DNA from: Burkholderiales bacterium | GTDB taxonomy: Bacteria; Pseudomonadota; Gammaproteobacteria; Burkholderiales; SG8-41 | Reading direction: 5' to 3' | DNA: 36,195 nucleotides | NCBI GenBank assembly: GCA_026125585.1 | Contig: JAHCLD010000002.1 | Span: 1-36,195 of the forward strand | Shown here: piece by piece, positions 14,781 through 36,083 of the stretch | Layout: every line of letters starts with the position of its first letter | How positions within the stretch are numbered: the stretch's first letter is position 1 | Notes under the pieces: model-generated | Databases searched by the model: none | Seen by the model: the letters and a program-made list of their open reading frames with translations, nothing else | Told to the model about the DNA's origin: nothing | Made by a program: the position numbers and the translations under genes

Positions 14781-14814
14781 CTTCCGCTCCTTTGCCGATC
14801 CGGCATTGTCATCG

Positions 14815-15816: not shown

Positions 15817-15888
15817 GAATACCTCCTCGTTGTGGACAGGTATTGCAGAACCCGCGGCTGAAGCCGCTGTTATCGTGACCTGAAGTCC

Positions 15889-15917
15889 ATTCTTTGCCGC
15901 GCCAGACCCAGCGTCAA
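15889..15917 (-). promoter_or_regulatory. possible internal sigma70-like promoter (TTGACG-17 nt-AAGAAT) ahead of the 14815 binding-protein gene
   Basis: Hexamers read on the - strand in the 128-nt spacer after the Fe-ADH gene. Sequence match only. Confidence 0.2.
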
Positions 15918-15944
15918 GCTGCCGACCGCACTATGGAGCCCGCG

Positions 15945-18718: not shown

Positions 18719-18755
18719 GGTTTCCCTTTTTTGGCCTGCGTCCGCGGCGGCAGCA

Positions 18756-19778: not shown

Positions 19779-19899
19779 GCCCAACTCCTGATCGGTCAAC
19801 TTCATGACTCTCGAATCTTGCGCAAACACGGACACTTTCAGTTGCGCTGCGGTCTTGCCCTTGCCCCTCCTTGCTGCTGTTACGCCCACATCCCCGTCA

Positions 19900-20901
19900 T
19901 CAATTGGTCCGTCTGGCCAGCCCCAGCTCCGTCAATGCCTCTTCCAATTCCCGGTACTGTTCATCCCAGTAACGGCCGGCATCCCTGCCGCCCAGAAAAT
20001 GATTCACGCGGAAATTCTTCTCGATGTCCTTTTTCCATTCCTCGGTCTTGCCAAGCTCGGCAAAAATCTTTTCCCAGTAGGCTTTTTGTTGCTCACCGAT
20101 GCCCTGCGCGCCCACCACGCCGCGCCAGCTGTCGAACACCGCGTTTGCCCCCTGTTCTTTCCAGGTGGGAATCTCCGCAAGGAGGCCCGTCATCCGCTGC
20201 GGCGCGCTGACGCCGATGATGCGGATCGCTCCGGATTTGACGTGTGGCAACAGCGCGCTGAACGTGGATGCGGCGACATCCACGTGCCCTCCCATCACCG
20301 CCGTCAGCGATTGCCCGGATGATTTGAAAGCCACCACTTTCATGCGCTTGATGTCGACTCCCGCGGCCTTCATGGGCAGGGCCACCCCCATGTGGATGTG
20401 ATTGCCGAGGGCGGTGGCAATGGCGACGCTGACGGAGTCCGGCGCTGCCTTCAGTTTTTGAATCAGCTCCCGCCCGTTCTTGATCGGCGAATCCGCCTTC
20501 ACCGTCGTGAAAATGTATTCGTTGAACAGCATTGCCAGCGGCGTGTAGCTGCTGTGATCCACCTTGCTTGTGCCCATGATCCGGCTGGTCAGCAGCGTTG
20601 GCGCCAGCATCATCAGGTAATGCGGATCGTTTGCATGCTGGGAAAGGTAATTGGATGCGATCCCGCCGCCGCCGCCGGTTTTGTTCGCCACCACCGCGGA
20701 AGGCACCATCTTTTTATCCTGCCAGATGCCCAGGATCACCCTGGCGGTAAGATCCTGGTTTCCTCCCGGCCCGGCGCTGACGATGAGCTCGGTGGTGCGT
20801 TCCGGCTTCCACTGCGCCCACGCGTTTCCGCCGCAGGCCGCCGCCAGCAGGCAGCCGGCCAGTATCGGTGAAAACCGTTTCTTGCCCTGTTTCAGCGTCA
20901 T
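19900..20901 (-). CDS. TctC family periplasmic substrate-binding protein (tandem paralog of the gene at 18756)
   Basis: Signal peptide then AQWKPERTTELIVSAGPGG. The start overlaps the upstream CoA-transferase stop (ATGA). Confidence 0.85.
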   Translation of the reverse strand: MTLKQGKKRFSPILAGCLLAAACGGNAWAQWKPERTTELIVSAGPGGNQDLTARVILGIWQDKKMVPSAVVANKTGGGGGIASNYLSQHANDPHYLMMLAPTLLTSRIMGTSKVDHSSYTPLAMLFNEYIFTTVKADSPIKNGRELIQKLKAAPDSVSVAIATALGNHIHMGVALPMKAAGVDIKRMKVVAFKSSGQSLTAVMGGHVDVAASTFSALLPHVKSGAIRIIGVSAPQRMTGLLAEIPTWKEQGANAVFDSWRGVVGAQGIGEQQKAYWEKIFAELGKTEEWKKDIEKNFRVNHFLGGRDAGRYWDEQYRELEEALTELGLARRTN

Positions 20902-22154
20902 GATGATTTCCCTCCTCGTTTAACCGCTGCCGGCGGTTTGGTGCTGATGATCCCGTCATGTTCCAGTTGTTCGATTTCGCCGGCTGACAGGCCGAACATG
21001 TCGTGCAGAACCTCAAACGTATCGCGACCGATACGACCGCCGCTCTTGTGTATGGCGCCGGGCGTGCGGGTAAGACGCGGAACGGGTGCCGCCATCGCGA
21101 CCGTGCCGAGCTCTTCATCGGGAATGCTTGGAATCATCCCGCGCGCCTTGAAATGCGGATCCCTGAAAATGTCGGCCATGGTGTAGATGCGGGTGAACAC
21201 CACGTCTTCGGCCGACAGGGCCTTTTCCACCGCTTCATAGTCGCGCGCGCCAATCCATGCGGCGACCATGCCGTCCATTTCGTCGCCGTTCTTGACGCGT
21301 TCGAGGCGCGTGTTGAACCGCGGATCATCCAGGATGTCCGGCCGTCCCATTGCCAGGCACAAACGACGAAAGCTGTTGGTTTGCGAACCCTGGACATGCA
21401 CATAATGCCCGTCGCGGGTCTGGAACAGGTTATTGACCACGCTGCCGGTATGACCGGCACCCTCGCGGCCAACGACGTAACCGGTCTTCTCATAGGCCGC
21501 GATATGCGCCTCCATGAAACTGAATGCGCACTCATACAGGGCCGTATCCACAACCTGCCCTTCGCCCGTGCGCTCACGGTGGCGTAACGCCATCATGGTG
21601 CCGAAAGCGGCGTAGAGCCCGGTGATGCAATCCGTAAGCGCGATATTGGCGCGCGCCGGAGGGCGGTCGGCGTCACCGGTGACATGGCGCAGCCCGCCAA
21701 CCGCCTCGCAAACCACGCCATAACCGGGCCGCTGGCTGTAAGGGCCGGTCTGTCCGTATCCGGAAACCCGGACCAGCACCAACCCGGGATTGATCTGCGA
21801 AAGCGCCTCGTAACCGAGCCCCCACTTTTCGAGGGTGCCGGGACGGAAATTCTCGATCACGACATCACATTTTTTGACGACCCGGCGCACCAGGTCCTGT
21901 CCGGCCGCCGTGCGCAAATCGATGACGATCAACTTCTTGTTGCGCATCAGGCTTGTTGCGTATAAAGGCTTGTCCTTGTAGCGCTTGGCGGATGTGCGGA
22001 TCGGATCACCTTCGGCGGATTCAACCTTGATCACTTCCGCGCCAAAATCGGCGAGCAACCGCGCACAAAACGGCCCCGCAATCGTCGTGCCGAGTTCCAG
22101 CACCCGGATGCCATGCATCGGTTTCTCCGGACTGTCCCTGCCGTTCTCTTGCAT
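20898..22154 (-). CDS. family III CoA-transferase (CaiB/BaiF)
   Basis: Motifs GIRVLELGTTIAGPFC..LADFGAEVIKVE, VVIENFRPG and GYGQTGPY. The alternative start ATG 22118 (MHGIRVLELG) has a better SD (GGAG). Confidence 0.85.
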   Translation of the reverse strand: MQENGRDSPEKPMHGIRVLELGTTIAGPFCARLLADFGAEVIKVESAEGDPIRTSAKRYKDKPLYATSLMRNKKLIVIDLRTAAGQDLVRRVVKKCDVVIENFRPGTLEKWGLGYEALSQINPGLVLVRVSGYGQTGPYSQRPGYGVVCEAVGGLRHVTGDADRPPARANIALTDCITGLYAAFGTMMALRHRERTGEGQVVDTALYECAFSFMEAHIAAYEKTGYVVGREGAGHTGSVVNNLFQTRDGHYVHVQGSQTNSFRRLCLAMGRPDILDDPRFNTRLERVKNGDEMDGMVAAWIGARDYEAVEKALSAEDVVFTRIYTMADIFRDPHFKARGMIPSIPDEELGTVAMAAPVPRLTRTPGAIHKSGGRIGRDTFEVLHDMFGLSAGEIEQLEHDGIISTKPPAAVKRGGKSS

Positions 22155-22179
22155 GGCTTTTTCCCGGTCAACTTCCTGT

Positions 22180-23151
22180 TTACTTGGTGAGCAGATCGTT
22201 CAGCACGCCGCGCAGCTCTTCGTACTGGGAGGCGAAAAATTTCTGGCTCTCGGCGCTGCCCAGGTAATTGTTCACCCAGTAATTTTTCTGGATGTCCTCG
22301 TTCCATTCAGGAGTCTGCACCAGTTTCTGCAAGGCGCCGTCCCACCACGCCGTCTGCGCAGCCGTCATGCCTTTGGGACCGAGCACGCTCCGCCAGTTGG
22401 ACACAACGACGTCAACGCCCTGCTCTTTCCAGGTCGGCACATTCGCCAGCGCGCCCGGCAGGCGCTGCGGGGCCGCAATTCCGATGATCCGCAACTGGCC
22501 GTTGGCGACATGCGGCGCCGCATTGGCAACCGCCGTCGCCACGACATCAATATGCCCGCCCAGCACCTGGGTAATGGATTCGCTGCCGGAGTTGAAAACC
22601 GCGATGCGCATCCTGCCGACATCCGCGCCGACGCTTTTCGCAATCCTTCCCACCGCGATGTGCTGCATTCCGCCGCGAGCCGTCGCGACTGCCGCGCTGA
22701 CGGACGCGGGATCTGCCTTCATTTTCTGGATCAGGTCGGCTCCGGTCCTGATCGGCGATTCATTGCGGACGGCAATTACGATGTATTCGCTGAACAGCAA
22801 CGCCAGCGACGTCACATCGGTGTGGCTGAGCCCGCTTTTGCCGGAAATGTGATTGAGCAGCACCACGGGGGAACTGACGGCGATATAACGCCCGTCGCCG
22901 CCCTGCTGGTTGAGATACGCCATGCTGATGGCCCCGCCGCCGCCGGGCTTGTTGACGACGTTCACCGGCACGGGAACGATATTGCGTTCTTTCCAGATCT
23001 TCTGCATCGTCCGCGCAGTCCTGTCCTGCGCGCCGCCGGCGCCCGAGCCGGCGATGATTTCGACCGCACGGTCAGGAGTCCAGGCCCCGGCTGCGTGTGC
23101 CGTTCCGGCGATACAAACTGCCGCGATCATGAAAATCAGATTCCGCAACAT
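22180..23151 (-). CDS. TctC family periplasmic substrate-binding protein
   Basis: Signal peptide MLRNLIFMIAAVCIAGTAHA, then AGAWTPDRAVEIIAGSGAGG. Confidence 0.85.
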   Translation of the reverse strand: MLRNLIFMIAAVCIAGTAHAAGAWTPDRAVEIIAGSGAGGAQDRTARTMQKIWKERNIVPVPVNVVNKPGGGGAISMAYLNQQGGDGRYIAVSSPVVLLNHISGKSGLSHTDVTSLALLFSEYIVIAVRNESPIRTGADLIQKMKADPASVSAAVATARGGMQHIAVGRIAKSVGADVGRMRIAVFNSGSESITQVLGGHIDVVATAVANAAPHVANGQLRIIGIAAPQRLPGALANVPTWKEQGVDVVVSNWRSVLGPKGMTAAQTAWWDGALQKLVQTPEWNEDIQKNYWVNNYLGSAESQKFFASQYEELRGVLNDLLTK

Positions 23152-23246
23152 GTTTATTCCCCCGCAAAACCCGCATTTCCGAATGCCCCGGATGCACGAT
23201 GCCGCTGCGTGTTCCGGCTCACCCGGACTCGATATTCACTTCTCCC

Positions 23247-24686
23247 TCACCTGTCGCGCGCAGACTTGAATCGTTCGAAGCCCGCCAACGCGGCCAGTGG
23301 ATGGCCGGCGTTGGCCATCTCGTCGTAGACCGGCACGCCCAGCGCCACCGCCTTGTCGCGGAATTCGCGCTTGCGCGCCTCCAGCGCCGGCTCGCCGTCG
23401 GAGCGCAGCACCAGGATGAAATGCGACTGCCCCGGATATTTCTCCTGCACGCGCAGCGCGGCGGCGATCAGGTTGTCGAGCACCTCCGGCTTGGAGCGCC
23501 CGACGAACGCCGACAGGTTCAGGTGCATCACCAGCGCCTCGGGCCTGCCCTGGCCGCAGATGATGTCGAGGATTTTTTCGGCGACGCGGCCGTCGTCCTG
23601 CTGCAACGTGCCGACCGGGCAGTCCACCGGGTTGGTGATGCTGGTGCCGGGCGGCAGTTTCAGCGCCGCCAGCGCGTCGATGGTGCCCTGGTCGAAAGGC
23701 AGCACGTCGAGGCCGAGGCGGGCGAAATAATCCGTGGCCAGCACGCTGGTGCCGCCGCCGTTGCCGAACAGCACGACTTTCCGCGTCGGCTGCTGCGGGC
23801 GCGGCGTCAGCGCCTGGAAAATGAGCAGCGTGTCGATGAAGTGGTCGAGCGTGTCGACCAGCATGCAGCCGGTCTGGCGCGCCAGCGCCACCCACACGCG
23901 GTCGTCGCCGGCCAGAGAACCGGTGTGTGAAGCCGCGGCAGCGAGGCCCTGCTGCGTGCGGCCGCCCTTCAGGATGACCACGGGCTTGGACGCCTTCGCA
24001 TTGCGCAGAATGTCGAACAGCCTGCGGCCGTCTTTCGCGGTCTCGATGTACATGCCGATCACCTTCGTCTGCGGATCGGCGAGGTAGAACTCGAGCAGGT
24101 CGGAAGGCGTCACGTCGGCGCAGTTGCCGACCGTCACCAGGCCGGAGAACTTGAGCCCCCGCGACAGGCCGCGGCGGATGATGTCGGTGCCCAGCCCGCC
24201 GCTCTGCGACACGATGCCGACGGGGCCGGTTTCCTTCGGCCCGATTTCGGTGAACGTGACGCGGCCGCGCGGCGTGTAGATGCCGAGGCAGTTCGGCCCG
24301 ATCAGCCGCATGCCGCCGTCCCGCGCGGCCCGCACCAGGTCGTCCTGCAGGTTCTTGCCTTCGTCGACTTCACCGAAACCGCTGGAGATCACCTGCGCGA
24401 AGCGCACGTGGCCCTTGGCCGCGGCCAGCATGCCGGGAATCTGCGCGCCGGACACGGCGATATAGGCGTAGTCCACCGGCTTGGGCGTGTCCGCCAGCGT
24501 CTTGTAGGCGGGCAGCCCGTCGATTTCCGCGGCCCCCGGATGAATCGGATAGATGTCGCCGCTGAACCCGAATTCGCGGATGCGGCGGATGAATATGTTG
24601 GGCAGCGCGTTGCCCTTGCTCGATGCGCCGATCACGGCGACAGTCTTCGGTGCGAACAGCGGGGTGAATTGTTCGAGGATGCTCAT
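23247..24686 (-). CDS. ADP-forming acyl-CoA synthetase, CoA-binding / ligase-CoA subunit (acetate--CoA ligase family, alpha-type)
   Basis: 479 aa. Motifs KTVAVIGAS (CoA-binding Rossmann), RLIGPNCLGI and SQSGGLG, plus a phosphohistidine-loop-like AAASHTGSLAG. Confidence 0.8.
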   Translation of the reverse strand: MSILEQFTPLFAPKTVAVIGASSKGNALPNIFIRRIREFGFSGDIYPIHPGAAEIDGLPAYKTLADTPKPVDYAYIAVSGAQIPGMLAAAKGHVRFAQVISSGFGEVDEGKNLQDDLVRAARDGGMRLIGPNCLGIYTPRGRVTFTEIGPKETGPVGIVSQSGGLGTDIIRRGLSRGLKFSGLVTVGNCADVTPSDLLEFYLADPQTKVIGMYIETAKDGRRLFDILRNAKASKPVVILKGGRTQQGLAAAASHTGSLAGDDRVWVALARQTGCMLVDTLDHFIDTLLIFQALTPRPQQPTRKVVLFGNGGGTSVLATDYFARLGLDVLPFDQGTIDALAALKLPPGTSITNPVDCPVGTLQQDDGRVAEKILDIICGQGRPEALVMHLNLSAFVGRSKPEVLDNLIAAALRVQEKYPGQSHFILVLRSDGEPALEARKREFRDKAVALGVPVYDEMANAGHPLAALAGFERFKSARDR

Positions 24687-24702
24687 GTTCTGTTTCCGGT
24701 GC

Positions 24703-25410
24703 TCAACCCAGGATGAAGCGCGCGTCGACCGCGACCGCGCCGGTTTCGGACACGATCAGCGGATTGATGTCGGCCTCGCTGATGTCGGCCGCGTGCTTCA
24801 GCAGCAGGCCGTCCTCGCCGCCGATCTTCAGCAGCACGTCGATGATGGCCTCGCGCGAAGCGGGCTTGCCGCCGCGCGCGCCCTTCAGGATCGCCGCGGC
24901 TTTCAGCTCGTCGAGCATTTCCTCGGCGTCGATGCGCGCGATCGGGCACAGGCGGAAGGACACGTCCTTGAAGATCTCGACGAAAATGCCGCCGAGACCG
25001 ACCATCACCAGCGGGCCGAACTGCGGATCGCGCAGGCCGCCGACCACCAGTTCGTGGCCCGCGGGCGCCATTTCTTCGACCAGGAAACCCTCGATGCGCG
25101 CGCCCTTGATCTTCGGCGCCGCGAGCATGCCTTCGATCGCGGCCTTCACTTCGCCGGCGCTGCGCAGGTTGACCTTGACGCCGCCGGCATCGCTCTTGTG
25201 GAGGATGTCGGGCGACATGACCTTCACCACCACCGGCGCCTGCAAACCGTTCATCACGGCCTCGACGTCGGCCACGCCCTTCGCGACGCGCGACTGCGGC
25301 ACGCGGATGCCATGGCCGGCCAGCAGCGCCTTGCCGGCGCTTTCGTCGAGCGCGTTGCGGCCTGCGGCCATGGCTGTAGAGACGATTTTATCTATTTGAT
25401 TTTTAATCAT
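24703..25410 (-). CDS. ADP-forming acyl-CoA synthetase, ATP-grasp subunit (beta-type)
   Basis: 235 aa with VVKVMSPDILHKSDAGGVKVNL and PLMVGLGGIFVE-like motifs of the ATP-grasp_5 domain. Its ATG overlaps the biotin carboxylase stop (ATGA). Confidence 0.8.
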   Translation of the reverse strand: MIKNQIDKIVSTAMAAGRNALDESAGKALLAGHGIRVPQSRVAKGVADVEAVMNGLQAPVVVKVMSPDILHKSDAGGVKVNLRSAGEVKAAIEGMLAAPKIKGARIEGFLVEEMAPAGHELVVGGLRDPQFGPLVMVGLGGIFVEIFKDVSFRLCPIARIDAEEMLDELKAAAILKGARGGKPASREAIIDVLLKIGGEDGLLLKHAADISEADINPLIVSETGAVAVDARFILG

Positions 25411-25416
25411 ATTTTC
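25385..25416 (+). repeat. degenerate copy of the AT-rich element (ATTTTATCTATTTGATTTTTAATCATATTTT) lying across the BC / ATP-grasp gene junction
   Basis: By-eye alignment with 2102-2134. It forces rare A/T-ending codons on both genes: AGG AAA ATA TGA, and ATG ATT AAA AAT CAA ATA GAT AAA. Confidence 0.6.
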
Positions 25417-26756
25417 CTGCCCGTCACTTCGCCGATGATGCCGGTGTGGACACGCCCTTCGCGAAACTGGCTCGAGCGCAGGATGTTCACCACGGCCGGG
25501 ATGTTGTGTTTCAGGCCCTGGATGTCGAAACCCTCCAGCGCCTCGATGAGCCTGTCGATCGCGGCGCTGCGCGTGGCCGCACGCACGATGACCTTGGCGA
25601 TCATCGGATCGTAATGCGGCGTCACGTCGCGGCCTTCGGCGTAGCCGGTGTCGATGCGGATGCCTTCGCCTTCGGGCGGACGGAACACCGTCAGCTTGCC
25701 CGGCGACGGGAAAAAATTCTTCGGATCCTCGGCGTAGACCCGCGCCTGGATCGCATGACCTTTCACCTCCGCCTTGCCCGGCAGGATGTCGGACAGTTTT
25801 TCGCCGGCGGCGGAGCGGATCTGCGACCGTACCAGATCGACGCCGGTGACTTCCTCGGTGACGCCGTGCTCGACCTGCAGCCGCGTGTTCATTTCCAGGA
25901 AATTGAACGAGCCATCGGCGCCGAGCAGCATTTCGACGGTGCCGATGTTGTCGTAACCCATGCTTTTCATGATGCCGGCGATCTGGTCGGCGACGCCGAC
26001 GGCCTTGTCGCGCGGAATTTCGGGCCCCGGCGCTTCCTCGATGACTTTCTGGTTGCGGCGCTGGGTCGAGCAGTCGCGCTCGAACAGGTGCATCGCGCCG
26101 CCGTGGCGGTCGCCGAGGATCTGGAACTCGACGTGGCGCGGGCGTTCGATCAGTTTTTCCAGATAGACCTCGGCGGTGCCGAAGCCGCGGCTGGCCATCG
26201 AGCGCGAGCGCTCGACCGCGATCAGCAGTTCGGCCTCGTCCTTCGCCGGCAGCATGCCGATGCCGCCGCCGCCGCCGGCGGGCTTCACCAGCACCGGGAA
26301 CCCGATCTTGCGCGCCGCGGCGAGGATCGCGTCATTGTCGTCGGGCAGCACGCCCGAGCCCTGGGACATCGGCATGCCGTACTGCGCGGCGATGTCGCGG
26401 GCGCGGGTCTTGTGGCCCATCGCGTCGATCCACTTTGGCGAAGGCCCGATGAAGTGCGCGCCGGCATCGATGACCTTCTGCGCGAACCCGGCGTTCTCCG
26501 ACAGAAAACCGTAGCCGGGATGCAGGCCGTCGGCGCCGGACTGTTTCAGCACCGCGACGATCCGGTCCTGGTCGAGATAGCTCTCGCGCGCCGGCGCCGG
26601 GCCGACCGCAAAGGTCTGGCTGGCCATTTCCAGATAGGGCGCATGGCTGTCGGCCTCGGAATAGATCGCGACCGACGGAATATTCATCGCGTTCAGCGCG
26701 CGCAGCACCCGGGCGGCAACGGCGCCCCGGTTGGCAACTAGGATTTTATTGAACAT
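25407..26756 (-). CDS. biotin carboxylase (AccC-type ATP-grasp subunit)
   Basis: 449 aa. Motifs MFNKILVANRG, KPAGGGGGIGM, ERDCSTQRRNQK and EMNTRLQVEH. Appears intact. Confidence 0.9.
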   Translation of the reverse strand: MFNKILVANRGAVAARVLRALNAMNIPSVAIYSEADSHAPYLEMASQTFAVGPAPARESYLDQDRIVAVLKQSGADGLHPGYGFLSENAGFAQKVIDAGAHFIGPSPKWIDAMGHKTRARDIAAQYGMPMSQGSGVLPDDNDAILAAARKIGFPVLVKPAGGGGGIGMLPAKDEAELLIAVERSRSMASRGFGTAEVYLEKLIERPRHVEFQILGDRHGGAMHLFERDCSTQRRNQKVIEEAPGPEIPRDKAVGVADQIAGIMKSMGYDNIGTVEMLLGADGSFNFLEMNTRLQVEHGVTEEVTGVDLVRSQIRSAAGEKLSDILPGKAEVKGHAIQARVYAEDPKNFFPSPGKLTVFRPPEGEGIRIDTGYAEGRDVTPHYDPMIAKVIVRAATRSAAIDRLIEALEGFDIQGLKHNIPAVVNILRSSQFREGRVHTGIIGEVTGRKI

Positions 26757-26802
26757 GTCTTTTCGTCATGGATCATGGATGTTTCGGAAACCGCCGCTGG
26801 AA

Positions 26803-26897
26803 CGCCGCGAGGCATGTGAAACGCGAAACGCTCTTCCGGACCATGCTCCGGCCCGGAAGTTGGGTGTGGGGAATCACGTTTCACATGCCTCGCGGCG
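26803..26897. repeat. 21-bp perfect inverted repeat (CGCCGCGAGGCATGTGAAACG / CGTTTCACATGCCTCGCGGCG) enclosing a 53-nt loop with a nested 7-bp hairpin
   Basis: Arms at 26803-26823 and 26877-26897. Nested CTTCCGG/CCGGAAG at 26833-26839 and 26853-26859. Located in the 159-nt spacer between CT2 and the biotin carboxylase gene. Confidence 0.9.
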
Positions 26898-26915
26898 CTC
26901 TCCTCGGCGCACGGA

Positions 26916-28450
26916 TCAGTAGCTCGTCGGCCAGGCGCGCATCAGGTGCTGGCCCACGCCCCTGGTCATGCGCAGCTTGTAGACGTCGAGCATGCGGATC
27001 AGGTAGTCGCGCGTGTCCTGCGGCCGGATCACCGACTGCGCGGCGTACACGGCGGCCAGGCCCCAGACGTCCGCGCCCTTGCGGATGTCGGCCAGCGCCT
27101 CCTCGAAGCCCGGTTCGCCGTGGCCGACGCCATGCACGATCTTGGTCGCAAAGTCGGGGCTCATGAAGCTGACTTCCGCGGTCGGCCAGGCGCCGACCTC
27201 GTCGGAGTGGCGGCCGCCGCCCATGCAGACATAGGCTCGGCCGTAGCTCTTGCGCACGATCACCGACAGGTGCGCATGGTGACCATCTGCAGGGCGTGCA
27301 TGAAGTTCATGATCTTGCCCGGCGCACCGGCGCGTTCGGCCTCGGTCCCGATCTGGAAACCCGGGGTGTCGACCAGCATCACGAAGGGGATGTTGAACGA
27401 GTCGCACATCACGATGAAATCGACGATCTTGCGGCAGGCGTCGGCATCGAGCGCGCCGCCGCGGTGCAGCGGGTTGTTGGCGATGATGCCGACCGACTTG
27501 CCGCCGAGGCGCGCGAGCGCCGTCACCGCGCTCTTGCCGAAACGCGGCTTCATCTCGAACAGCGAGTCCCTGTCGACGATGCACTTGATGACCCGCTTCA
27601 TGTCGTACACCTGCGTGCGGCTCTCGGGCAGGATGTCGAACACTTTCGCCATGTCGGCGCCGGAACCCGCGGGCACCGGCGCTTCCGGCGGCGCTTCGCG
27701 GTGGTGGCCGGGCATGTACGACAGGAATTTCTTGATCTGGTCGAACACCTCTTCCTCGGTGTCGGCCACCTGGTCGACGAGGCCCGTGACTTCGGCGTGC
27801 AGGCGCCAGCCGCCAAGCTCTTCGGCCGAGACCTTCTCGCCCAGCGCCATCGACACCAGCCCGGGACTGGACACCGCCATGATCGCGCTCTTGTGCATGA
27901 TGGCGAAGTCGGACTGGCACATCAGCCAGGTCGACGAGCCGAAGGACGGGCCGAAGGCCGCCGCCGCGGTGGGCACTTCGCGCAGGCGACGGAACTGGGT
28001 GTTGTCGTTGCCCAGCAGCAGTCCCATGCCGCGCGACCCCATCGCGTCGGGCAACCGCGCGCCGGTGGATTCCCCGATCAGCACCAGCGGCATGCCGCGC
28101 TCGACCGCGGTGCGTTTCATGTGCGAGATCTTCTTGCTGTTGGTGGCCGAGGTCGATGCGCCTTTCACCGTGAAGTCGTTGACCACCAGGCAGACGTCAC
28201 GCTCATTGATGCGGCCGAAGCCGGCGAGCTTGCCGTCCGTCTGGGTCTCGTCCTCCATCTCCGGATACACCGCCGAGGAACCGAACAATCCGGACTCGAT
28301 GAACGAGCCCTTGTCCATCAGGTAGTCGATGCGCTGGCGCGCATTCCACACCCCCTTGGCCGTGCGCTTGGCATATTTCTCCTCACCGCCGCCGGCCAGT
28401 GCCTTGGCGCGACGGGCTTCATATTCCTGCAGCAATGCTTCGAATGCCAT
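26916..28450 (-). pseudogene. carboxyltransferase subunit (CT2, divergent paralog, about 511 codons) interrupted by a 1-nt frameshift near 27273-27274
   Basis: ORF 27260..28450 (N-terminal 396 aa: FTVKGASTS, SSPGLV, GIIANNP, DTPGFQIGTEAE) ends ...ALQMVTMRTCR*. ORF 26916..27920 continues in another frame with HLSVIVRKSYGRAYVCMGGG to the C-terminus. Confidence 0.8.
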
Positions 28451-28484
28451 TGAATCGATTCCGTTATGTCAACAAATCGTGGGT

Positions 28485-28514
28485 TAAAAAATAATCAATA
28501 AAATCAATATGTTA
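28485..28514 (-). repeat. AT-rich element copy in the spacer upstream of CT2; on the - strand it reads CATATTGATTTTATTGATTATTTTTT
   Basis: Shares the 12-mer CAATAAAATCAA with copies A and B. AATCAATATGTTA matches WATCAANNNNTTR. It overlaps the CoA-transferase stop codon. Confidence 0.6.
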
Positions 28515-29747
28515 CGATAACTCTGCGCAGACTTCGCCCTGTGGATCGCTGTAAATCACGCCGGCCTTTTCCAGGTCCCGTACTTCGTTCGCGGTCCAGC
28601 CCATCTGCTCCAGCACGCTCCGCGTGTCCCGACCGACGCGCCCTCCGCTTCTGCGGATGCGCCCGGGCGTGCGCGACAACCTGGGCACCGGGCCCGTCAG
28701 CGTCACCGTGCCCAGATCGTCGTCCGGAACTTCGGCCAGCATGCCGCGCTCGCGGAAATGCGGGTCCCGGAAAATATCGGCCACATTGTTGATGCCCATC
28801 GCGGGAACATCCGCCGCGTCCAGGATCCTGCGGATTTCCTCCAGCGTGTGCCGGCCGGCCCAGTCCTGCACGATCCCGTCCAGCGCCTGCTGGTGCCGGC
28901 CGCGCGCGATGGCGTTCGCAAAACGCTCGTCGGCAGGCAGCTCGGGGCGGCCGATGGCCGGCGCAAAGCGGCGGAACACCGTGTTCTGCGCCGCCTGGAT
29001 GTGCACGAACTGGCCGTCGGCCGTCGAGTACAGATTGTTCGGCACGCTGCCGGCAATGCCGGAACCGGCACGGTTGGCAATCTCGCCGAGTTTGTCGTAG
29101 GCCGGCACATGCGGCTCGATGAAGCTGAACGCGCCCTCGGCCAGGGCCGCGTCGACGTACTGTCCTTCGCCGGTCCGGTTGCGATGCAGCAGTGCCATCA
29201 TCGCGCCAAAGGCCGCGTACAGGCCCGTGATGTAATCGGTCAGCGCCACCGCGACGCGCGCCGGCGGACGGTCGGGATCGCCGGTCAGATGCCGCAGCCC
29301 GCTGGCCGCTTCGCAGATGATGCCGTAGCCGGGACGCGCGCTGTAGGGGCCGGTCTGACCGAAACCGCTGATGCGGACCATGACCAGATCCGGGCGCAGC
29401 CGCGACAGGTCGGCATAGCCCAGCCCCCATTTTTCGAGGCCGCCCGGACGGAAATTCTCGACGACCACGTCGCATTGCGGCACCAGCCTGCGCACCAGCG
29501 CCTGCCCCCGGGCATGGCGCAGATCGACCGAGATCAGTTTTTTGTTGCGCAGGATGCTGGCCGCATACAGCGACTTGCCCTTGAACCGCTTGCCCGCGGA
29601 GCGCACGCCGTCGCCTTCCCGCGGTTCGATCTTGATCACCTCCGCCCCGAAGTCGGCGAACAGCCGGCCGCAGAAGGGCCCGGCGATGGTGGAACCCATC
29701 TCCAGGACGCGGTACCCGCTCAGCGGCCCCTGCGGAGAATCACCCAT
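28512..29747 (-). CDS. family III CoA-transferase (CaiB/BaiF), paralog of the gene at 20898..22154
   Basis: Motifs GYRVLEMGSTIAGPFC..FADFGAEVIKIE, VVVENFRPG and GFGQTGPY. Confidence 0.85.
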   Translation of the reverse strand: MGDSPQGPLSGYRVLEMGSTIAGPFCGRLFADFGAEVIKIEPREGDGVRSAGKRFKGKSLYAASILRNKKLISVDLRHARGQALVRRLVPQCDVVVENFRPGGLEKWGLGYADLSRLRPDLVMVRISGFGQTGPYSARPGYGIICEAASGLRHLTGDPDRPPARVAVALTDYITGLYAAFGAMMALLHRNRTGEGQYVDAALAEGAFSFIEPHVPAYDKLGEIANRAGSGIAGSVPNNLYSTADGQFVHIQAAQNTVFRRFAPAIGRPELPADERFANAIARGRHQQALDGIVQDWAGRHTLEEIRRILDAADVPAMGINNVADIFRDPHFRERGMLAEVPDDDLGTVTLTGPVPRLSRTPGRIRRSGGRVGRDTRSVLEQMGWTANEVRDLEKAGVIYSDPQGEVCAELS

Positions 29748-29759
29748 GCCTTTTTCTTT

Positions 29760-30746
29760 TTATTTGACAAGCCCGATGTCGGTGAGGATGCCCCGCAGTT
29801 CGGCGGCCTGGGTTTCGTAATATTTCGCGGCGTCCTTCGCCGGCAGGTAGTTGCCGTCCCAGTAGCTCGCGGCCAGTTCTTTTTTCCATTCGTCGGACTG
29901 CGAAAGCTTCTGGAACGCGCCTTCCCAGAAAGCGACCTGCGCGGCATTCAGTCCCTTCGGCCCGATCGCGCCCTGCGAGGCGGAAAACGTGCCGTCGATT
30001 CCCTGTTCGCTCCACGTCGGCACAGTGGCCAGCGCGCCGGGCATCCGCTGCGCGGACGTAATGGCGATGACGCGGATCGTGCCGGCCTGCACATGCGCAA
30101 TCACGTTGGGCGTCGTCGACGACACGACGTCGATATGGCCGCCCAGCAGGTTGGTCACCGACTCCCCCGAAGACTTGAAGGCGATGACTTTCATTTTGCG
30201 GATATCCACGCCCGCGGCCTTCATCGCCTTGGCGATGCCGATGTGGATGTGGTTGCCAAGGGTGCTGGCCACGGCGACCGACAGCGAGGACGGATCCTTT
30301 TTCAGGCGCGCGATGAGGTCCGCGCCGGTCTTGATCGGCGAATCCGCCCGCACCGCCACGGTCATGTATTCGTTGAAGAGCAGCGAAATCGGCGTGAAAT
30401 CGCTCCAGGTCAGCGGGCTGGTGCCGACCAGCTTGTTGGTCAGCAGCGTGTACGGCGCGATCGACACGTAGTGGCCGTCCCCGGCGTGCTGGTTGATATA
30501 GTTCCAGGCGATGGTGTTGCCGCCGCCGGGCTTGTTCATGACGATCGTGCTGACTTCGACGATTTTCTTCTCCTGCCAGATGCGCTGGACCGCGCGGTTG
30601 GCGCGGTCGACCGCGCCGCCGGCCGCGGTGCCCGAGATGATTTCGACATTGCGCTCGGGCTTCCATGTCGCCTGCGCCATGACCGTCGTCGCGGCAGCCA
30701 GCGCCAGGCCTGCGCCGGTCAGGGTTTTCAGCAAGGTTTTTTTCAT
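29760..30746 (-). CDS. TctC family periplasmic substrate-binding protein
   Basis: ATG 30746 (MKKTLLKTLTGAGLALAAATTVMA) preceded by GGAGGAGG. Mature part QATWKPERNVEIISGTAAGG. The upstream part of ORF 29760..31109 overlaps the CT3 gene. Confidence 0.85.
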   Translation of the reverse strand: MKKTLLKTLTGAGLALAAATTVMAQATWKPERNVEIISGTAAGGAVDRANRAVQRIWQEKKIVEVSTIVMNKPGGGNTIAWNYINQHAGDGHYVSIAPYTLLTNKLVGTSPLTWSDFTPISLLFNEYMTVAVRADSPIKTGADLIARLKKDPSSLSVAVASTLGNHIHIGIAKAMKAAGVDIRKMKVIAFKSSGESVTNLLGGHIDVVSSTTPNVIAHVQAGTIRVIAITSAQRMPGALATVPTWSEQGIDGTFSASQGAIGPKGLNAAQVAFWEGAFQKLSQSDEWKKELAASYWDGNYLPAKDAAKYYETQAAELRGILTDIGLVK

Positions 30747-30766
30747 CACAATCCTCCTCCGGATGA

Positions 30767-32335
30767 TCAGGGTCTGACACCGCTTTTGAATTTGGGCCCC
30801 AGCTGCGAACGCAGACGGCCCTGCAGGGCATCGATGAACTGGCAAAGGTACGGCCGCGTCTCGCGCGGATCGATGATGTCCTCGACGGCAAAGGCCTCGG
30901 CGGTGCGGAAGGGCGAGGCCAGCCGTTTCAGTTCCGCCTCCAGTTCCTTTTCCCGGGCGGCGGGATCGGGCGCGCTTTCGATTTCGCGCCGGTAGGCCGC
31001 CTTGACGCCGCCTTCGACCGGCAGCGAGCCCCATTCGGCGGAAGGCCAGGCGATCTTGAAATTGAGCCCGCCGCGATCGGTGAAGCCGCCGCCTGCCACG
31101 CCATAACACTTGCGGATCAGCACCGAAAACACCGGAACGCTGACCTGGAATCCGATGAAGCGGGCGCGCACGCCTTCGCGCAGGATCGCGTCGGACTCGG
31201 ATTCGACGCCGACCATCAGCCCCGGAACGTCGGCAAACAGGATGATCGGGATGTTGAACATGTCGCAGAGCTCGGTGAAATGCCCCTGCTTGCGCGCCGC
31301 CTTGTAATCCACGATGCCGCCGACCATCGGATTGCTGGCGACGATGCCGACCACTTTGCCGTTCATGCGGGCAAAGCCGGTAATCACCGCACGGCCGAAA
31401 GTCGGCTGGATTTCGAAGAAGGAGCCGCGGTCGACGATCATGCCGATCAGCTTCTTCATGTTGTAGGCCTGGCGGCCGGAGCGCGGCACGATGCTGGCCA
31501 GCGCGTCCTCGCAGCGGTCGACCGGATCGCCGCTGTCGACGACCGGCGGCAGTTCCCAGACGTTCTGCGGCATGTACGACAGGAAACGGCGGATCTGCTC
31601 GAAGCAGTCCTGCTCGCTTTCGGCCACGTTGTCGATGGTGCCGGCGGTATCGACGGCAACCCTGGTGCCGCCGAGTTCGTCCTTGTGCAGCCTCTGTCCG
31701 AACGCGCGTTCGACCACGGGCGGCCCCGCGGCGAAGATCTGGCCGCTGCCTTTCACCATGATCGACCAGTGCGACAGGATCGCGCGCATCGAAGGCCCGC
31801 CGGCAGTGGTGCCCATGACCGCGCTGACGACCGGAACGATGCCCAGCAGGTCGACGGAACGCTCCATGCCGTCCTGGCCGTAACCCGGAACCACGGTATA
31901 ACCCTTGCGCCGCGCGGTGTTGACCGTGCCGCCGGTACCGTCGATCAGATTGACCAGCGGCATGCGGTACTCGTACGCGAGGTCTTCGATGAACCCGCCC
32001 TGCCCGCCCTTGCGGCGGTCGCTGCCGAACCCGGTGCCGGCGCGGATGGTGTAATCTTCGCCGCCGATGGCCACCGGCCGGCCATCGATGCGCGCAATGC
32101 CCATCACGTAGGGTGCCGGTTCAAACGCGGTCAGCCGGCCTTCGGCATCGTAGCTGGCTTTGCCGGCCAGTTTGCCGACCTCACGGAAAGATCCCGGATC
32201 GATCAGCGCGGCAATTCGCTCGCGCACCGTGAGCTTGCCTTGGGCGTGGTGCTTGGCCACGGCCTCCGGACCGCCACAATCCTCCGCCAGCGCACGCCGA
32301 CGATGCAGCTCTTCAATTTCCGGCAGCCAGCTCAT
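30767..32335 (-). CDS. acyl-CoA carboxylase carboxyltransferase subunit (CT3, 522 aa)
   Basis: Collinear with CT1 over its whole length, for example APYVMGIARIDGRPVAIGGED, VPVVSAVMGTTAGG, GIVASNP, DVPGLMVG and LIRKCYGVAGG, with an identical C-terminal ...GVRP. Confidence 0.85.
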   Translation of the reverse strand: MSWLPEIEELHRRRALAEDCGGPEAVAKHHAQGKLTVRERIAALIDPGSFREVGKLAGKASYDAEGRLTAFEPAPYVMGIARIDGRPVAIGGEDYTIRAGTGFGSDRRKGGQGGFIEDLAYEYRMPLVNLIDGTGGTVNTARRKGYTVVPGYGQDGMERSVDLLGIVPVVSAVMGTTAGGPSMRAILSHWSIMVKGSGQIFAAGPPVVERAFGQRLHKDELGGTRVAVDTAGTIDNVAESEQDCFEQIRRFLSYMPQNVWELPPVVDSGDPVDRCEDALASIVPRSGRQAYNMKKLIGMIVDRGSFFEIQPTFGRAVITGFARMNGKVVGIVASNPMVGGIVDYKAARKQGHFTELCDMFNIPIILFADVPGLMVGVESESDAILREGVRARFIGFQVSVPVFSVLIRKCYGVAGGGFTDRGGLNFKIAWPSAEWGSLPVEGGVKAAYRREIESAPDPAAREKELEAELKRLASPFRTAEAFAVEDIIDPRETRPYLCQFIDALQGRLRSQLGPKFKSGVRP

Positions 32336-32340
32336 GACTC

Positions 32341-32385
32341 ACAATATTATTTATAAAAAACAATAACTTATATAAAAGCAAAGGC
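32341..32385 (-). repeat. AT-rich leader upstream of CT3, loosely related to the 25-bp element; on the - strand it reads CTTTTATATAAGTTATTGTTTTTTATAAATAATATT
   Basis: By-eye alignment to TTTTATAAGTATTTGATTTTATTGAATATTTT requires indels. No clear SD before ATG 32335. Confidence 0.4.
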
Positions 32386-32415
32386 TCACTTTTAAATGCT
32401 GGTGACTGCTTGCTT

Positions 32416-32637
32416 TTATTCTTCGACGATGGCCACCACCTGGCCTTCGGCAACCGGGTCCTTTTCCTTGACCAAGATCTCTTTCACCGTACCGCCGTCT
32501 TCTGTGATGACCGGAATTTCCATTATCATGGACTCGATCACGATCAGCGTGTCACCACTCTCGACCTTGTCTCCGGGCTTGGCCTTCAGCTGCCAGACCG
32601 TGCCAGTGATTTCGGATTTGACTTCGATGCGGGCCAT
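32416..32637 (-). CDS. biotin/lipoyl-attachment-domain protein (73-aa BCCP-like carrier) lacking the canonical biotinyl lysine
   Basis: It has the flattened beta-barrel pattern GTVW.L.AKPGDKVESGDTLIVIESMIMEIPV...GTVKEILVKEKDPVAEGQVVAIVE. The SD AAGGAG lies 6 nt before the ATG. The expected E(A/S)MKM reads ESMIM. Confidence 0.8.
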   Translation of the reverse strand: MARIEVKSEITGTVWQLKAKPGDKVESGDTLIVIESMIMEIPVITEDGGTVKEILVKEKDPVAEGQVVAIVEE

Positions 32638-32675
32638 GCGAGACTCCTTGAAATAGGGACGGAAGGTGGAAAAGC

Positions 32676-32704
32676 ATGCTATGCCTGCCCTATATTGTTG
32701 TCAA
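32676..32704 (-). promoter_or_regulatory. candidate sigma70 promoter of the carboxylase cluster (TTGACA-17 nt-TAGCAT)
   Basis: Read on the - strand: -35 at 32699-32704 and -10 at 32676-32681, about 40 nt upstream of ATG 32637. Confidence 0.5.
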
Positions 32705-32748
32705 GAAGATTGTTGACAATAATACAAATTGAATCTATTGTCGCAACA
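32694..32748. promoter_or_regulatory. candidate GntR-family operator boxes: ATTGTTGTCAA (32694-32704), ATTGTTGACAAT (32709-32720, palindromic ATTGT-N2-ACAAT) and ATTGTCGCAACA (32737-32748)
   Basis: Repeated motif overlapping both -35 hexamers and the -10 of the regulator promoter. Box 2 fits the generic GT-Nx-AC pattern of GntR operators. Confidence 0.45.
32713..32741 (+). promoter_or_regulatory. candidate sigma70 promoter of the GntR regulator gene (TTGACA-17 nt-TATTGT)
   Basis: -35 at 32713-32718 and -10 at 32736-32741, about 40 nt upstream of ATG 32781. Confidence 0.5.
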
Positions 32749-32780
32749 GTCCAGTTAATCGAGCGCAAGCCCCACTTCTC

Positions 32781-33491
32781 ATGTCAGCCGTCCATCCTTC
32801 CGTCGAAGTTCTTGCGCAACTGCGACAAGCCGCACCCCTGACGCAGTCGCTGCCCGAGCAAATCGCAGCGAGGCTGTCGGAACGGATCGTGTCCGGCGCC
32901 TATGCACCCGGCCAGCGCATCATGGAGCAGGCCGTCGCCGAGGAATTTGAAGTCAGCCGCGGCCCGGTCCGCGAAGCACTGCGCCTGCTCGAAAAAGACG
33001 GCCTGGTGATGATCCTGCCGCGGCGCGGCGCGCAGGTCACCAATCCGAGCATCGAGGAAGTCAACGAAATCTTCGACATCCGGGCGATGCTCAACGGCCT
33101 GCGCGACCGGCTGATCGCCGAAAGACCGAATCGCACGCAGCTGATCCTCGCGCTTGAGCAGGGCATCGCAAAGCTGGCCGAAACCGCCGCAACGCCGGGG
33201 CCCGGCGACGATTACATCGACATCGTGCTGCGCCTGAACCGGCTGCTGACCCAGGACGCCGGCAATCACCGCCTGCAGACCATTCTGGGTTCGCTCGCGG
33301 TGCAGACCGTGCGCTACACGCGGCTGGGCCTGTCCACGCCGCAGCGCCGGCAGCAGTCCGTGCGCAACTGGCAAAGCCTGCTGCAGGCCATCCGCGACGG
33401 CAACGGCGATGCCGCGGAACGCATTGCGCGCCAGCGCGTGATCGATTCGCGCGACGCCGCGGTCGAACATCTGCGCACCCAGACGGCCTGA
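32781..33491 (+). CDS. GntR family transcriptional regulator (FadR/FCD subfamily)
   Basis: N-terminal winged HTH (PGQRIMEQAVAEEFEVSRGPVREALRLLEKDGLV) and an all-helical C-terminal FCD-like domain. Transcribed divergently from the cluster. Confidence 0.85.
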   Translation: MSAVHPSVEVLAQLRQAAPLTQSLPEQIAARLSERIVSGAYAPGQRIMEQAVAEEFEVSRGPVREALRLLEKDGLVMILPRRGAQVTNPSIEEVNEIFDIRAMLNGLRDRLIAERPNRTQLILALEQGIAKLAETAATPGPGDDYIDIVLRLNRLLTQDAGNHRLQTILGSLAVQTVRYTRLGLSTPQRRQQSVRNWQSLLQAIRDGNGDAAERIARQRVIDSRDAAVEHLRTQTA

Positions 33492-33579
33492 ACTCCGCCG
33501 CGGCTTCGGTCGGTTGTGCCCCCCTGCGGCGGCGCTTAAGATAGCGCCCTTCGCTCCATTTCCACCGGAAATCCATGCC

Positions 33580-34386
33580 ATGACCGCACTGCCCAAGCTG
33601 ACCGATGCCACGCTGACACTCGACGGACGCATCGCGACATTGACCTTCAATCGCGACGACGTGCGCAACGCGCTGACCAGCACCGATCTGGTGTCGGACA
33701 TCGTCAATACGCTGCAGTGGACCGGCACTTGCCTTGACGCCTCGGTGCTGATCATCACCGGCGCCGGCAGCGCGTTTTCCGCCGGCGGCAACATCAAGAC
33801 CATGGGCGAACGCGCGAAGGCCCCGCCGCACGAACTGCAGCGCAACTACCGCACCGGCATCCAGCGCATCCCGCTGGCAATGCAGGACGCCGACATCCCG
33901 GTGATCGCCGCGGTCAACGGCCCGGCGATCGGCGCCGGCTTCGACCTCGCCAACATGTGCGACATCCGCATCGGTTCGACCGAAGCGCAGTTCGGCGAAA
34001 CCTTCGTCAATCTCGGCATCATCCCCGGCGACGGCGGCGCGTGGTTCCTGAACCGCCTGCTCGGCTACCAGCGCGCGGCGGAGCTGACGCTGACCGGGCG
34101 CATCATCAAGGCCGACGAGGCCAAGGCGCTGGGCATCCTGCTCGAAGTCACCGAGCCCGGCGAACTGATGGCCGCGGCGCAGAAGCTGGCCGGCAGGATC
34201 GCCGCCAAGCCGCCGCAGGCCGTGCGTTACGCCAAGCGCCTGCTCAAGCTGTCGCAGCGGCAGAATCTCGACGAACATCTCGACGCCTGCTCGGCCTTCC
34301 AGGCGATCTGCCACAAGACCGAAGACCACCAGGAGGCCCTGCGGGCGTTTTTCGACAAGCGCAGGGGCGAATTCAAGGGTTACTGA
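33580..34386 (+). CDS. enoyl-CoA hydratase/isomerase (crotonase) family protein
   Basis: ATG 33580 (MTALPKLTD...). Motifs FNRDDVRNAL, GAGSAFSAGGNIK and VNGPAIGAGFDLA. Confidence 0.85.
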   Translation: MTALPKLTDATLTLDGRIATLTFNRDDVRNALTSTDLVSDIVNTLQWTGTCLDASVLIITGAGSAFSAGGNIKTMGERAKAPPHELQRNYRTGIQRIPLAMQDADIPVIAAVNGPAIGAGFDLANMCDIRIGSTEAQFGETFVNLGIIPGDGGAWFLNRLLGYQRAAELTLTGRIIKADEAKALGILLEVTEPGELMAAAQKLAGRIAAKPPQAVRYAKRLLKLSQRQNLDEHLDACSAFQAICHKTEDHQEALRAFFDKRRGEFKGY

Positions 34387-35093
34387 TGCGCATCCTGCGC
34401 CGCGGCATCTGCATGCTGTTGCTGGCCGCGGTTCCGGTCCTGCCGGCGCATGCCCAGCAGAAAAAGCCGCCGGCCAAACCGCAGGACGGCGTGTTCGCGC
34501 CGCGCGACGAAGCCGCCGGCGATCCGTCATGGACGCGCTTCCGCGACCGCCTGCTGCAGGCCGTGCAGGAGCGCGACAAAAAATTCGTGCTCGGCATCGT
34601 CGCCCGCAACGTGCGCAATGGCCTGGAGCAACCGGCGGGGCACGGGGAATTCATCCGCCAGTGGGACATCGAGGCCGAGGACAGCCCGTTGTGGCGCGAA
34701 CTGCCGCGCGCATTGCATCTCGGCGCCGCCTGGTACAGCCACGAAAAAATGCCGCGCAGTCTCTGCGCGCCCTACGTGTTGCCGCGCTGGCCGAAGGATG
34801 CGGATCCCCACGACCACGGCGCGATCACCGCGAGGGAAACCGCGCTGCGCGCCGGCCCCTCGGGCAGCGTGGAGATTCTCGCCAATCTCGGCTATTCCAT
34901 CGTCCGCGTCGTCGACTGGGAAGTTGCCGACAGCGATGCCGACAACCGGCAAAAATGGGTGAAGATCAGGGCCGGAGAGCGAGAAGGCTTCATTCCCGAG
35001 GAGCATATCCGCAGCCCGCTTGAACACCTGGCCTGCTTCCGCAAGGGCGAGGGCGGCTGGCGGCTGACTTCCTTCCTGGCCGCCGGCGAATGA
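34386..35093 (+). CDS. exported hypothetical protein with a C-terminal bacterial SH3-like domain
   Basis: The ATG overlaps the upstream TGA by 1 nt. Signal peptide MRILRRGICMLLLAAVPVLPAHA. SH3_3-like segment ALRAGPSGSVEILANLGYSIVRVV...WVKIRAGEREGFIPEEHI. Confidence 0.55.
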   Translation: MRILRRGICMLLLAAVPVLPAHAQQKKPPAKPQDGVFAPRDEAAGDPSWTRFRDRLLQAVQERDKKFVLGIVARNVRNGLEQPAGHGEFIRQWDIEAEDSPLWRELPRALHLGAAWYSHEKMPRSLCAPYVLPRWPKDADPHDHGAITARETALRAGPSGSVEILANLGYSIVRVVDWEVADSDADNRQKWVKIRAGEREGFIPEEHIRSPLEHLACFRKGEGGWRLTSFLAAGE

Positions 35094-35105
35094 GATGAAG
35101 GCTCC

Positions 35106-36083
35106 ATGCGCCGGGTCCTGCTTGCCGCGGCGCTGCTGATGGCCGCAGGCGGCGTGGCAGGCCTCGACCTGCAGGGTCATCGCGGCGCCCGCGGCCTGTT
35201 GCCGGAAAACACGCTGCCGGCCTTCGCCCGCGCGCTTGCCATCGGCGTCACCACGCTGGAGCTGGACGCCGCGATCACCCGCGACGGCGTGGTCGTGGTC
35301 AGCCACGACGCCACCCTGAATCCGGACATCACGCGCGGCCCTGGCGGCGGATGGATCACCCGCGGCGATCTCGCCATCCATGCGCTGACCTGGCAGGAGC
35401 TGCAGTCTTACGACGTCGGGCGCATCCGTCCGCAGACGGCCTATGCGCAACGCTTCCCTGAACAGCGACCGGTCGATGGCAGCCGCATTCCGCGGTTGGC
35501 CGAGGTATTTGAGCTGGCGCACCGCGCGGGCAACAACAGCGTGCGCTTCAACATCGAAACCAAGATCTCGCCGGAGCAGTCGCGGCTGACCGCGTCGCCC
35601 GAGGTTTTTGCGCGGACGCTGATCGGATTGATCCGTTCGGAAAATCTGGAATCCCGGGTCACGATACAGTCCTTCGACTGGCGCACGCTGCAGGTGGTGC
35701 AGCGCGAAGCCCCGCGCATTGCCACGGTATATCTGACCGCGCAGCAACCTTGGCTCGACAACATTCGCGCGCACGATGTTTCATCGCCATGGACGGCCGG
35801 CCTTCATGTCGGCAATCACGGCCGCTCGGTGCCGCGGATGGTCAAGGCGGCGGGCGCCGCCGCATGGTCGCCTCATTTCGGCGACCTGACCCGCGGGCAG
35901 TTGCGCGAGGCCCGTCAGCTGGGCCTGAAGGTGATCGTGTGGACCGTCAACGACGAAGCCGACATCGCACGGATGATCGACTGGGGCGTCGACGGCATCA
36001 TTTCCGATTATCCCGACCGTCTGCGCCGGCTTGCCGCCGGACGCGGACTGGCACTGCCGCCCGCGACGCCGGTCGCGCCCTGA
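35106..36083 (+). CDS. glycerophosphodiester phosphodiesterase family protein (periplasmic, GlpQ-like)
   Basis: Signal peptide, then LQGHRGARGLLPENTLPAF, LELDAAITRDGVVVVSHD and VWTVND motifs. Confidence 0.85.
   Translation: MRRVLLAAALLMAAGGVAGLDLQGHRGARGLLPENTLPAFARALAIGVTTLELDAAITRDGVVVVSHDATLNPDITRGPGGGWITRGDLAIHALTWQELQSYDVGRIRPQTAYAQRFPEQRPVDGSRIPRLAEVFELAHRAGNNSVRFNIETKISPEQSRLTASPEVFARTLIGLIRSENLESRVTIQSFDWRTLQVVQREAPRIATVYLTAQQPWLDNIRAHDVSSPWTAGLHVGNHGRSVPRMVKAAGAAAWSPHFGDLTRGQLREARQLGLKVIVWTVNDEADIARMIDWGVDGIISDYPDRLRRLAAGRGLALPPATPVAP

Follow-up and report, generated by a model that had tools for sequence, protein, structure and literature searches.

Isoleucine at the biotinyl-lysine position of a single-domain biotin carrier from an uncultured Burkholderiales: a recent null allele or a consensus error

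Can a biotin carrier without its acceptor lysine be a natural, retained component of a carboxylase operon? The question is raised by a gene in a 36,195-nucleotide stretch of Burkholderiales DNA (assembly GCA_026125585.1, contig JAHCLD010000002.1, positions 1 to 36,195), which was analysed as a whole and is referred to here as the window. A preliminary description, made from the letters alone, had reported that this gene encodes Met-Ile-Met at the tip of the hairpin, and had pointed to a possible natural lysine-less BCCP at the head of an otherwise intact operon. The gene, the codon concerned and the elements in front of them are the following.

32416-32637, minus strand: gene for a 73-residue single-domain biotin/lipoyl carrier, BCCP-like, of the BLAP/NF004547 type (open reading frame, PF00364, NF004547, 1Z6H)
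32524-32526, minus strand: codon 38, ATA (Ile), at the biotinyl-lysine position (read from the sequence)
32644-32649, minus strand: Shine-Dalgarno sequence AAGGAG, 6 nt before the carrier ATG (read from the sequence)
32676-32704, minus strand: sigma-70-like promoter-like site of the carrier gene, TTGACA-17-TAGCAT (consensus scan)
32693-32724, no strand assigned: 15-nt inverted repeat TATTGTTGTCAAGAA/TTGTTGACAATAATA, lying over the -35 boxes of the divergent carrier and GntR promoters
32781-33491, plus strand: gene for a GntR/FCD-family regulator, divergent from the carrier gene (Pfam GntR 3.5e-20, FCD 2.1e-15)

Translation of the minus-strand reading frame 32416-32637 gave a protein of 73 residues, MARIEVKSEITGTVWQLKAKPGDKVESGDTLIVIESMIMEIPVITEDGGTVKEILVKEKDPVAEGQVVAIVEE. 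The plus strand reads CATTATCAT at 32521-32529, corresponding to ATG ATA ATG on the coding strand, and the protein has Met-Ile-Met (ESMIME) where its family has Met-Lys-Met. The domain itself was readily recognized. Pfam Biotin_lipoyl (PF00364) matched residues 11-70 with E = 5.7e-13, the biotinyl/lipoyl barrel-sandwich domain was covered over its full length, and the NCBIfam model NF004547, “biotin/lipoyl-binding carrier protein”, scored 79.3 bits, above its cut-off of 75. The gene is thus predicted to encode a canonical single-domain biotin carrier of a known kind, which lacks the acceptor lysine of the E(A/S)MKM motif at the hairpin tip. The nearest solved structure was that of Bacillus subtilis BLAP (PDB 1Z6H, 2.3e-12), and in this alignment I38 was placed opposite the Lys of ESMKMEIP. 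The lysines closest to codon 38 are K24 and K52, none of them at the hairpin tip. Both the replacement of the biotinyl-lysine and the lack of a substitute lysine nearby were therefore described correctly.

The composition of the gene was also as described. ATA is used in 16 of the 10,063 codons of the window genes, which amounts to 2.7% of the Ile codons. The GC content of the carrier gene is 54.5%, compared with 65.2% for the other genes of the window, although a low value is a family-wide trait (carrier family mean, 55.9%). For this reason a foreign origin of the gene, suggested by its lower GC content, was rejected.

The similarity to BLAP extends beyond the fold. BLAP is likewise a stand-alone biotinyl domain of about 72 residues encoded next to acyl-CoA carboxylase subunit genes, and its hairpin motif aligns column for column with that of the window carrier. 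It is biotinylated by BirA and has been proposed as the carrier of the neighbouring carboxylase (PMC4016012). The differences are the motif of the window protein, ESMIMEIP, with Ile for the acceptor Lys, and the setting in a Burkholderiales operon with three carboxyltransferases, CoA transferases and TctC receptors.

In its normal form, such a carrier would receive biotin from biotin protein ligase on Lys38, at the tip of the β-hairpin. The biotin carboxylase of the operon would then carboxylate the Lys38-biotin, and the swinging arm would bring CO2 to the carboxyltransferases CT1, CT2 and CT3, acting on an acyl-CoA. This role follows from established knowledge of biotin-dependent carboxylases. 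Engineered apo-BCCPs with a substituted Lys, used as non-biotinylatable controls, show that a point substitution leaves a domain that can fold and cannot be biotinylated; those mutants were made in the laboratory, whereas the Ile38 of the window comes from an environmental assembly. The Ile38 apo-protein would be expected to fold without biotin attachment, the loss of Lys38 would abolish carrier function, and the dedicated carboxylase would be unable to turn over.

The genes that the carrier would serve are found downstream of it on the same strand, and the main ones are listed below.

30767-32335, minus strand: carboxyltransferase CT1, 522 residues, intact (Pfam Carboxyl_trans 3.2e-93, full length)
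29760-30743, minus strand: TctC receptor, downstream of CT1
28512-29747, minus strand: family III CoA-transferase, downstream of the TctC receptor
26916-28450, minus strand: carboxyltransferase CT2, frameshifted (tblastn with the L031 orthologue)
25407-26756, minus strand: biotin carboxylase, 449 residues, intact, without a fused carrier domain (Pfam Biotin_carb_N, CPSase_L_D2 and Biotin_carb_C; NCBIfam matches)
23247-25410, minus strand: ADP-forming acyl-CoA synthetase, split in two genes
17138-18718, minus strand: third carboxyltransferase paralogue, CT3, 526 residues (Pfam Carboxyl_trans 1.5e-95)

The interval from the acyl-CoA synthetase to CT3 holds additional TctC and CoA-transferase genes. 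As a whole, the minus-strand cluster 13860-32637 comprises three carboxyltransferase paralogues, one biotin carboxylase, one carrier, the split ADP-forming acyl-CoA synthetase, two family III CoA-transferases, several TctC (Bug) receptors, an Fe-alcohol dehydrogenase and a 3-hydroxyisobutyrate-dehydrogenase-like gene. A protein identical to CT1 is encoded in GCA_019635025.1. Association of the carrier with carboxylase genes was also observed in four related loci (L001, L031, L113 and L119). The scores of the cluster enzymes against NCBIfam equivalogs were all far below the cut-offs, and no substrate was assigned by them. No second biotinyl domain is encoded within the 36-kb window. Except for CT2 and the carrier, the genes gave full-length profile matches and no other broken gene was detected in the 36 kb. 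One long stretch, 5050-6450, had no Pfam match and kept a single codon frame; it contains a minus-strand reading frame of 370 residues (5109-6221) with a consistent codon-position GC bias and likewise no Pfam match.

In order to interpret the isoleucine, the state of the family at this position has to be known. Among the 120 best homologues of the carrier, 118 have MKM, one has MQM and one has MIM. At the codon level, 83 gene copies representing species comprised 54 with AAA, 28 with AAG and one with ATA, which gives Lys in 82 of 83. At larger distances, Lys was present in 179 of 181 aligned domains from 147 representatives (clustered at 50% identity), and the two exceptions were weak extra domains of multi-domain proteins; no lysine-less clade near the carrier was found among these 147. 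MIM as a family state was rejected on these three counts, Lys being present in about 98% of the family, and the comparison left open by the preliminary description, MIM or MKM, is answered by MKM, encoded as AAA or AAG. A comparison of the carrier gene with that of L002 gave 23 synonymous and three non-synonymous codon differences, which points to strong constraint over the deeper divergence.

The closest relatives date the change. The window carrier with Lys at position 38, and with the other 72 residues identical, exists as P0145 (MBX3666395.1, MCW5603992.1) and was found on five other contigs of the lineage, with an AAA codon and the gene order of the window, at nucleotide identities of 93-99.6%. 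These orthologues from uncultured Burkholderiales also share the promoter/operator region, and differ from the window by AAA instead of ATA and by a CT2 gene that is intact (511 aa). The reading of a natural lysine-less carrier fails because the orthologues have AAA at this codon. The nearest of the five contigs, L122 (GCA_026125425.1, JAHCLC010000100.1), overlaps window positions 28981-35830, that is 6.85 kb, at 99.6% identity. Outside one patch in CT1, a single difference separates both sequences, at window position 32525 (AAA->ATA): the plus strand has A in the window and T in L122, L121, L119 and L120. K38I is thus a one-base change, private to this contig and very recent. The codon is in line with this, since ATA is a rare Ile codon one step away from AAA and has not drifted to the preferred ATC. 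In the patch, 25 differences are crowded into 136 bp of CT1 (31312-31447). As most of them occur in L122 alone, it is L122 and not the window that appears to hold a stretch recombined from a paralogue or a chimeric assembly.

In a collection comprising 15 billion proteins, a single contig encoded the Ile form. Look-ups of the exact products of the carrier, the biotin carboxylase and the truncated CT2 revealed no independent contig of the window strain, and those of GntR and CT1 returned known sibling contigs only. The look-up of ATP-grasp_5 was more productive, as it gave two short Logan contigs, L124 (SRR12908354) and L125 (SRR12908353), 100% identical to window positions 24127-25560. The carrier and CT2 lie outside their span. 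Runs SRR12908353 and SRR12908354 contain the strain of the window. A literature search with the assembly and run accessions found nothing.

The frameshift in CT2 reported in the preliminary description is present in the sequence. It results from a 1-bp deletion at 27273/27274, where the coding strand ATGCCGCAC has become ATGCGCAC, with one C missing. When the intact 511-residue orthologue of L031 was aligned by tblastn, it matched the window CT2 in two frames (93% and 92% identity), with the change of frame at ...MVTM | HLSVIVRK. The extra base is present in L119, L120 and L121, the three relatives covering this site, and all the other indels between them and the window are intergenic. The deletion lies in a CC dinucleotide and not in a long homopolymer. 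The operon therefore bears more than one disabling lesion, K38I and the CT2 deletion, both absent from the covering relatives. These private lesions of the contig both fall in the carboxylase operon, at about 5 kb from each other.

The other MIM sequence among the homologues, P0010, comes from L001 (GCA_041491195.1, JBGPUM010000040.1) and also has ATA at the biotinyl-lysine codon. Its gene is 84.5% identical to that of the window. A single MIM clade of both sequences was rejected, since the closest neighbours of each carry Lys and the order of the surrounding genes is not the same. A regulator sets the L001 carrier apart from the carboxyltransferase genes, and in L001, L113 and L114 the carrier gene is flanked by an enoyl-CoA hydratase gene on one side and the GntR gene on the other, which indicates that the carrier can be its own transcription unit. 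L001 is near-identical to six contigs from other MAGs or runs (L026, L113 and L115-L118), from each of which it departs internally at one position only, L001:10113 (AAA->ATA). The Lys twin of P0010, P0144, is found on 11 contigs, the Ile form on one. Four error-like differences lie within 50 nt of the start of the L001 locus, near the end of the contig itself. Both MIM cases were ascertained through the motif, one by the reader of the preliminary description and one by a query that contained it. A mutational hotspot for A->T (quasi-palindrome or template switch) was considered by eye and rejected, since no template specifies T. The same inspection placed codon 38 in the loop formed by a short TCCAT/ATGGA inverted repeat; the context upstream of the codon differs between the window and L001 lineages.

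Other changes at or next to the acceptor were also seen. JGI metagenome contigs were scanned for second-position changes of the Lys codon with the pattern GARTCNATGABRATGGARATHCC; no further MIM carrier was among the hits, which comprised an MTM sequence within the family, two MRM domains belonging to BCCPs of other types, and unrelated sequences. The MRM domains are located at L094 1365-1387 and L082 5247-5269, one of them at the C-terminus of a reading frame of at least 391 residues. Within the family, P0004 has K38Q as its one difference from P0006, a protein found on 70 contigs; L085 565-587 has K38T (ACG); and P0131 (MGA0034082.1) has M37I (ESIKME). The four K38 changes seen in the carrier family are all transversions. 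In 208 unique family sequences there were about 60 rare residues over 53 conserved columns, including radical ones elsewhere (I4N, V51G, V68D and L55S), and the K38 column held three, the window included. Young singletons on a clonal background are what deleterious alleles and assembly errors alike should produce, so that the null model is enough; nothing calls for a systematic error or recurrent selection, and the background rates of rare variants would be enough to explain the recurrence of AAA->ATA.

Two readings account for most of what was observed. We favour, with a probability of about 0.5, a real and very young null allele which, together with the CT2 frameshift, would represent early inactivation of an accessory carboxylase pathway at the strain level. 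A single coding-strand A->T change (AAA->ATA) would have removed the acceptor lysine in one contig, and the 1-bp deletion in CT2 would point to the same inactivation; the most likely reading is that K38I is carried by the organism itself rather than by the consensus alone. The halves of CT2 that are still 92-93% identical to the orthologue, the lack of wider damage in the window and the lack of an alternative carrier domain in the 36 kb argue for it. It is weakened by the fact that the Ile allele is on one contig only and that neither lesion was found in an independent assembly. Moreover, a modest consensus error rate would also yield one substitution and one 1-base deletion in about 5 kb. As the 6.85-kb overlap with L122 holds no further private difference, the lesions are too young for selection to be measured on them, and relaxed selection cannot be demonstrated. 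The carrier search covered the 36 kb, and an AccB could exist elsewhere in the genome. Ranked close behind the real null allele is a consensus, assembly or base-call error, the organism having AAA and an intact CT2. Each lesion is a singleton in sequence that is otherwise the same as in the relatives, the Ile protein stands on one contig against five for its Lys twin, and L001 is likewise the sole contig with T against six near-identical ones, with error-like differences near its end. Radical singletons at other conserved columns (I4N, V51G, V68D) are also comparably frequent. Against an error, codon 38 lies away from the contig ends and outside repeats, the CT2 deletion is in a dinucleotide and the rest of the 36 kb contains no other broken gene. 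The contigs of SRR12908353 and SRR12908354 match the window at 100% elsewhere, which indicates that the assembly is accurate where checkable. To our knowledge, A->T is not a typical damage or homopolymer artefact.

The remaining explanations are much less probable than either of these. Recurrent, positively selected loss of biotinylation, by which K38I would rise to the majority in natural Burkholderiales populations, is unlikely, as is either of its conceivable drivers, the sparing of scarce biotin or a dominant-negative off-switch of an accessory carboxylase. It would draw on the independent and identical AAA->ATA in the L001 lineage, with its diverged gene and other gene order, on this change being the only internal one there, and on the other singletons at codon 38, K38Q and K38T. 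On the other hand, each allele was seen once, with no persistence across samples, K38 is no clear outlier against the rare-variant background, both MIM cases carry the selection bias of motif ascertainment, and a selected loss should mostly use the larger target of nonsense and frameshift changes. In other bacteria, several carboxyltransferases are known to use common carrier and biotin carboxylase subunits, and the pathway might work through another carrier, such as the housekeeping AccB or a small BCCP elsewhere. This appears more doubtful still: the 36 kb encode no other biotinyl domain, all the relatives keep a dedicated Lys carrier beside these genes, and CT2 is also broken in the window contig. 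Least probable of all is an evolved unbiotinylated decoy or regulator similar to the plant BADCs, BCCP homologues that lack the biotinyl-lysine and act as inhibitors of heteromeric acetyl-CoA carboxylase (10.1101/634550). That precedent and the otherwise intact protein, with its good promoter and Shine-Dalgarno sequence, speak for a decoy, and the window carrier resembles the BADCs as a biotinyl-domain protein without that lysine. However, plants keep the BADCs as conserved paralogues alongside functional BCCPs (10.1101/634550; PMC12706156), whereas the window has a private single-base loss in the only carrier gene of its operon. Ile is conserved in no clade and is one base from an identical Lys protein in the lineage, no Lys carrier coexists within the 36-kb window, and the ATA codon speaks for a very recent change. 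With Lys present in the five sibling contigs, the decoy reading is essentially refuted on the available sequences. From the four explanations of the preliminary description, a dead carrier with early decay and a base-call error still lead, while a decoy and another carrier found no support.

As it stands, the window protein is best regarded as a known kind of biotin carrier in which either a null allele has arisen sporadically or the assembly is wrong, and the case matters little in itself. An annotation pipeline would still call the protein a carrier. The case advises caution: striking active-site substitutions in MAGs should be checked against near-identical sibling assemblies before they are read biologically. 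If both lesions are real, they would provide a small and clean case of the first steps in the loss of a pathway in an uncultured strain. If the recurrence in L001 were selected, it would suggest that biotin economy shapes accessory carboxylases in nature.

The surroundings of the carrier gene were also analysed. The spacer between the carrier and CT1 (32336-32415) is 80 bp long and AT-rich, and an 11-bp stem at 32372-32419 spans the carrier stop codon. A terminator or attenuator in the spacer was rejected, since its folding was no better than that of shuffled sequences (z = -1.05). On the upstream side, the good promoter and Shine-Dalgarno sequence reported earlier do precede the gene. The promoter-like site has 10 of 12 consensus matches, in a region where four sites were found and 0.4 were expected. 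The AAGGAG of the carrier is kept in L119-L122 and L031. The inverted repeat at 32693-32724 is probably the operator of the adjacent GntR/FCD regulator, since it is also kept in L031, a relative at about 82% nucleotide identity.
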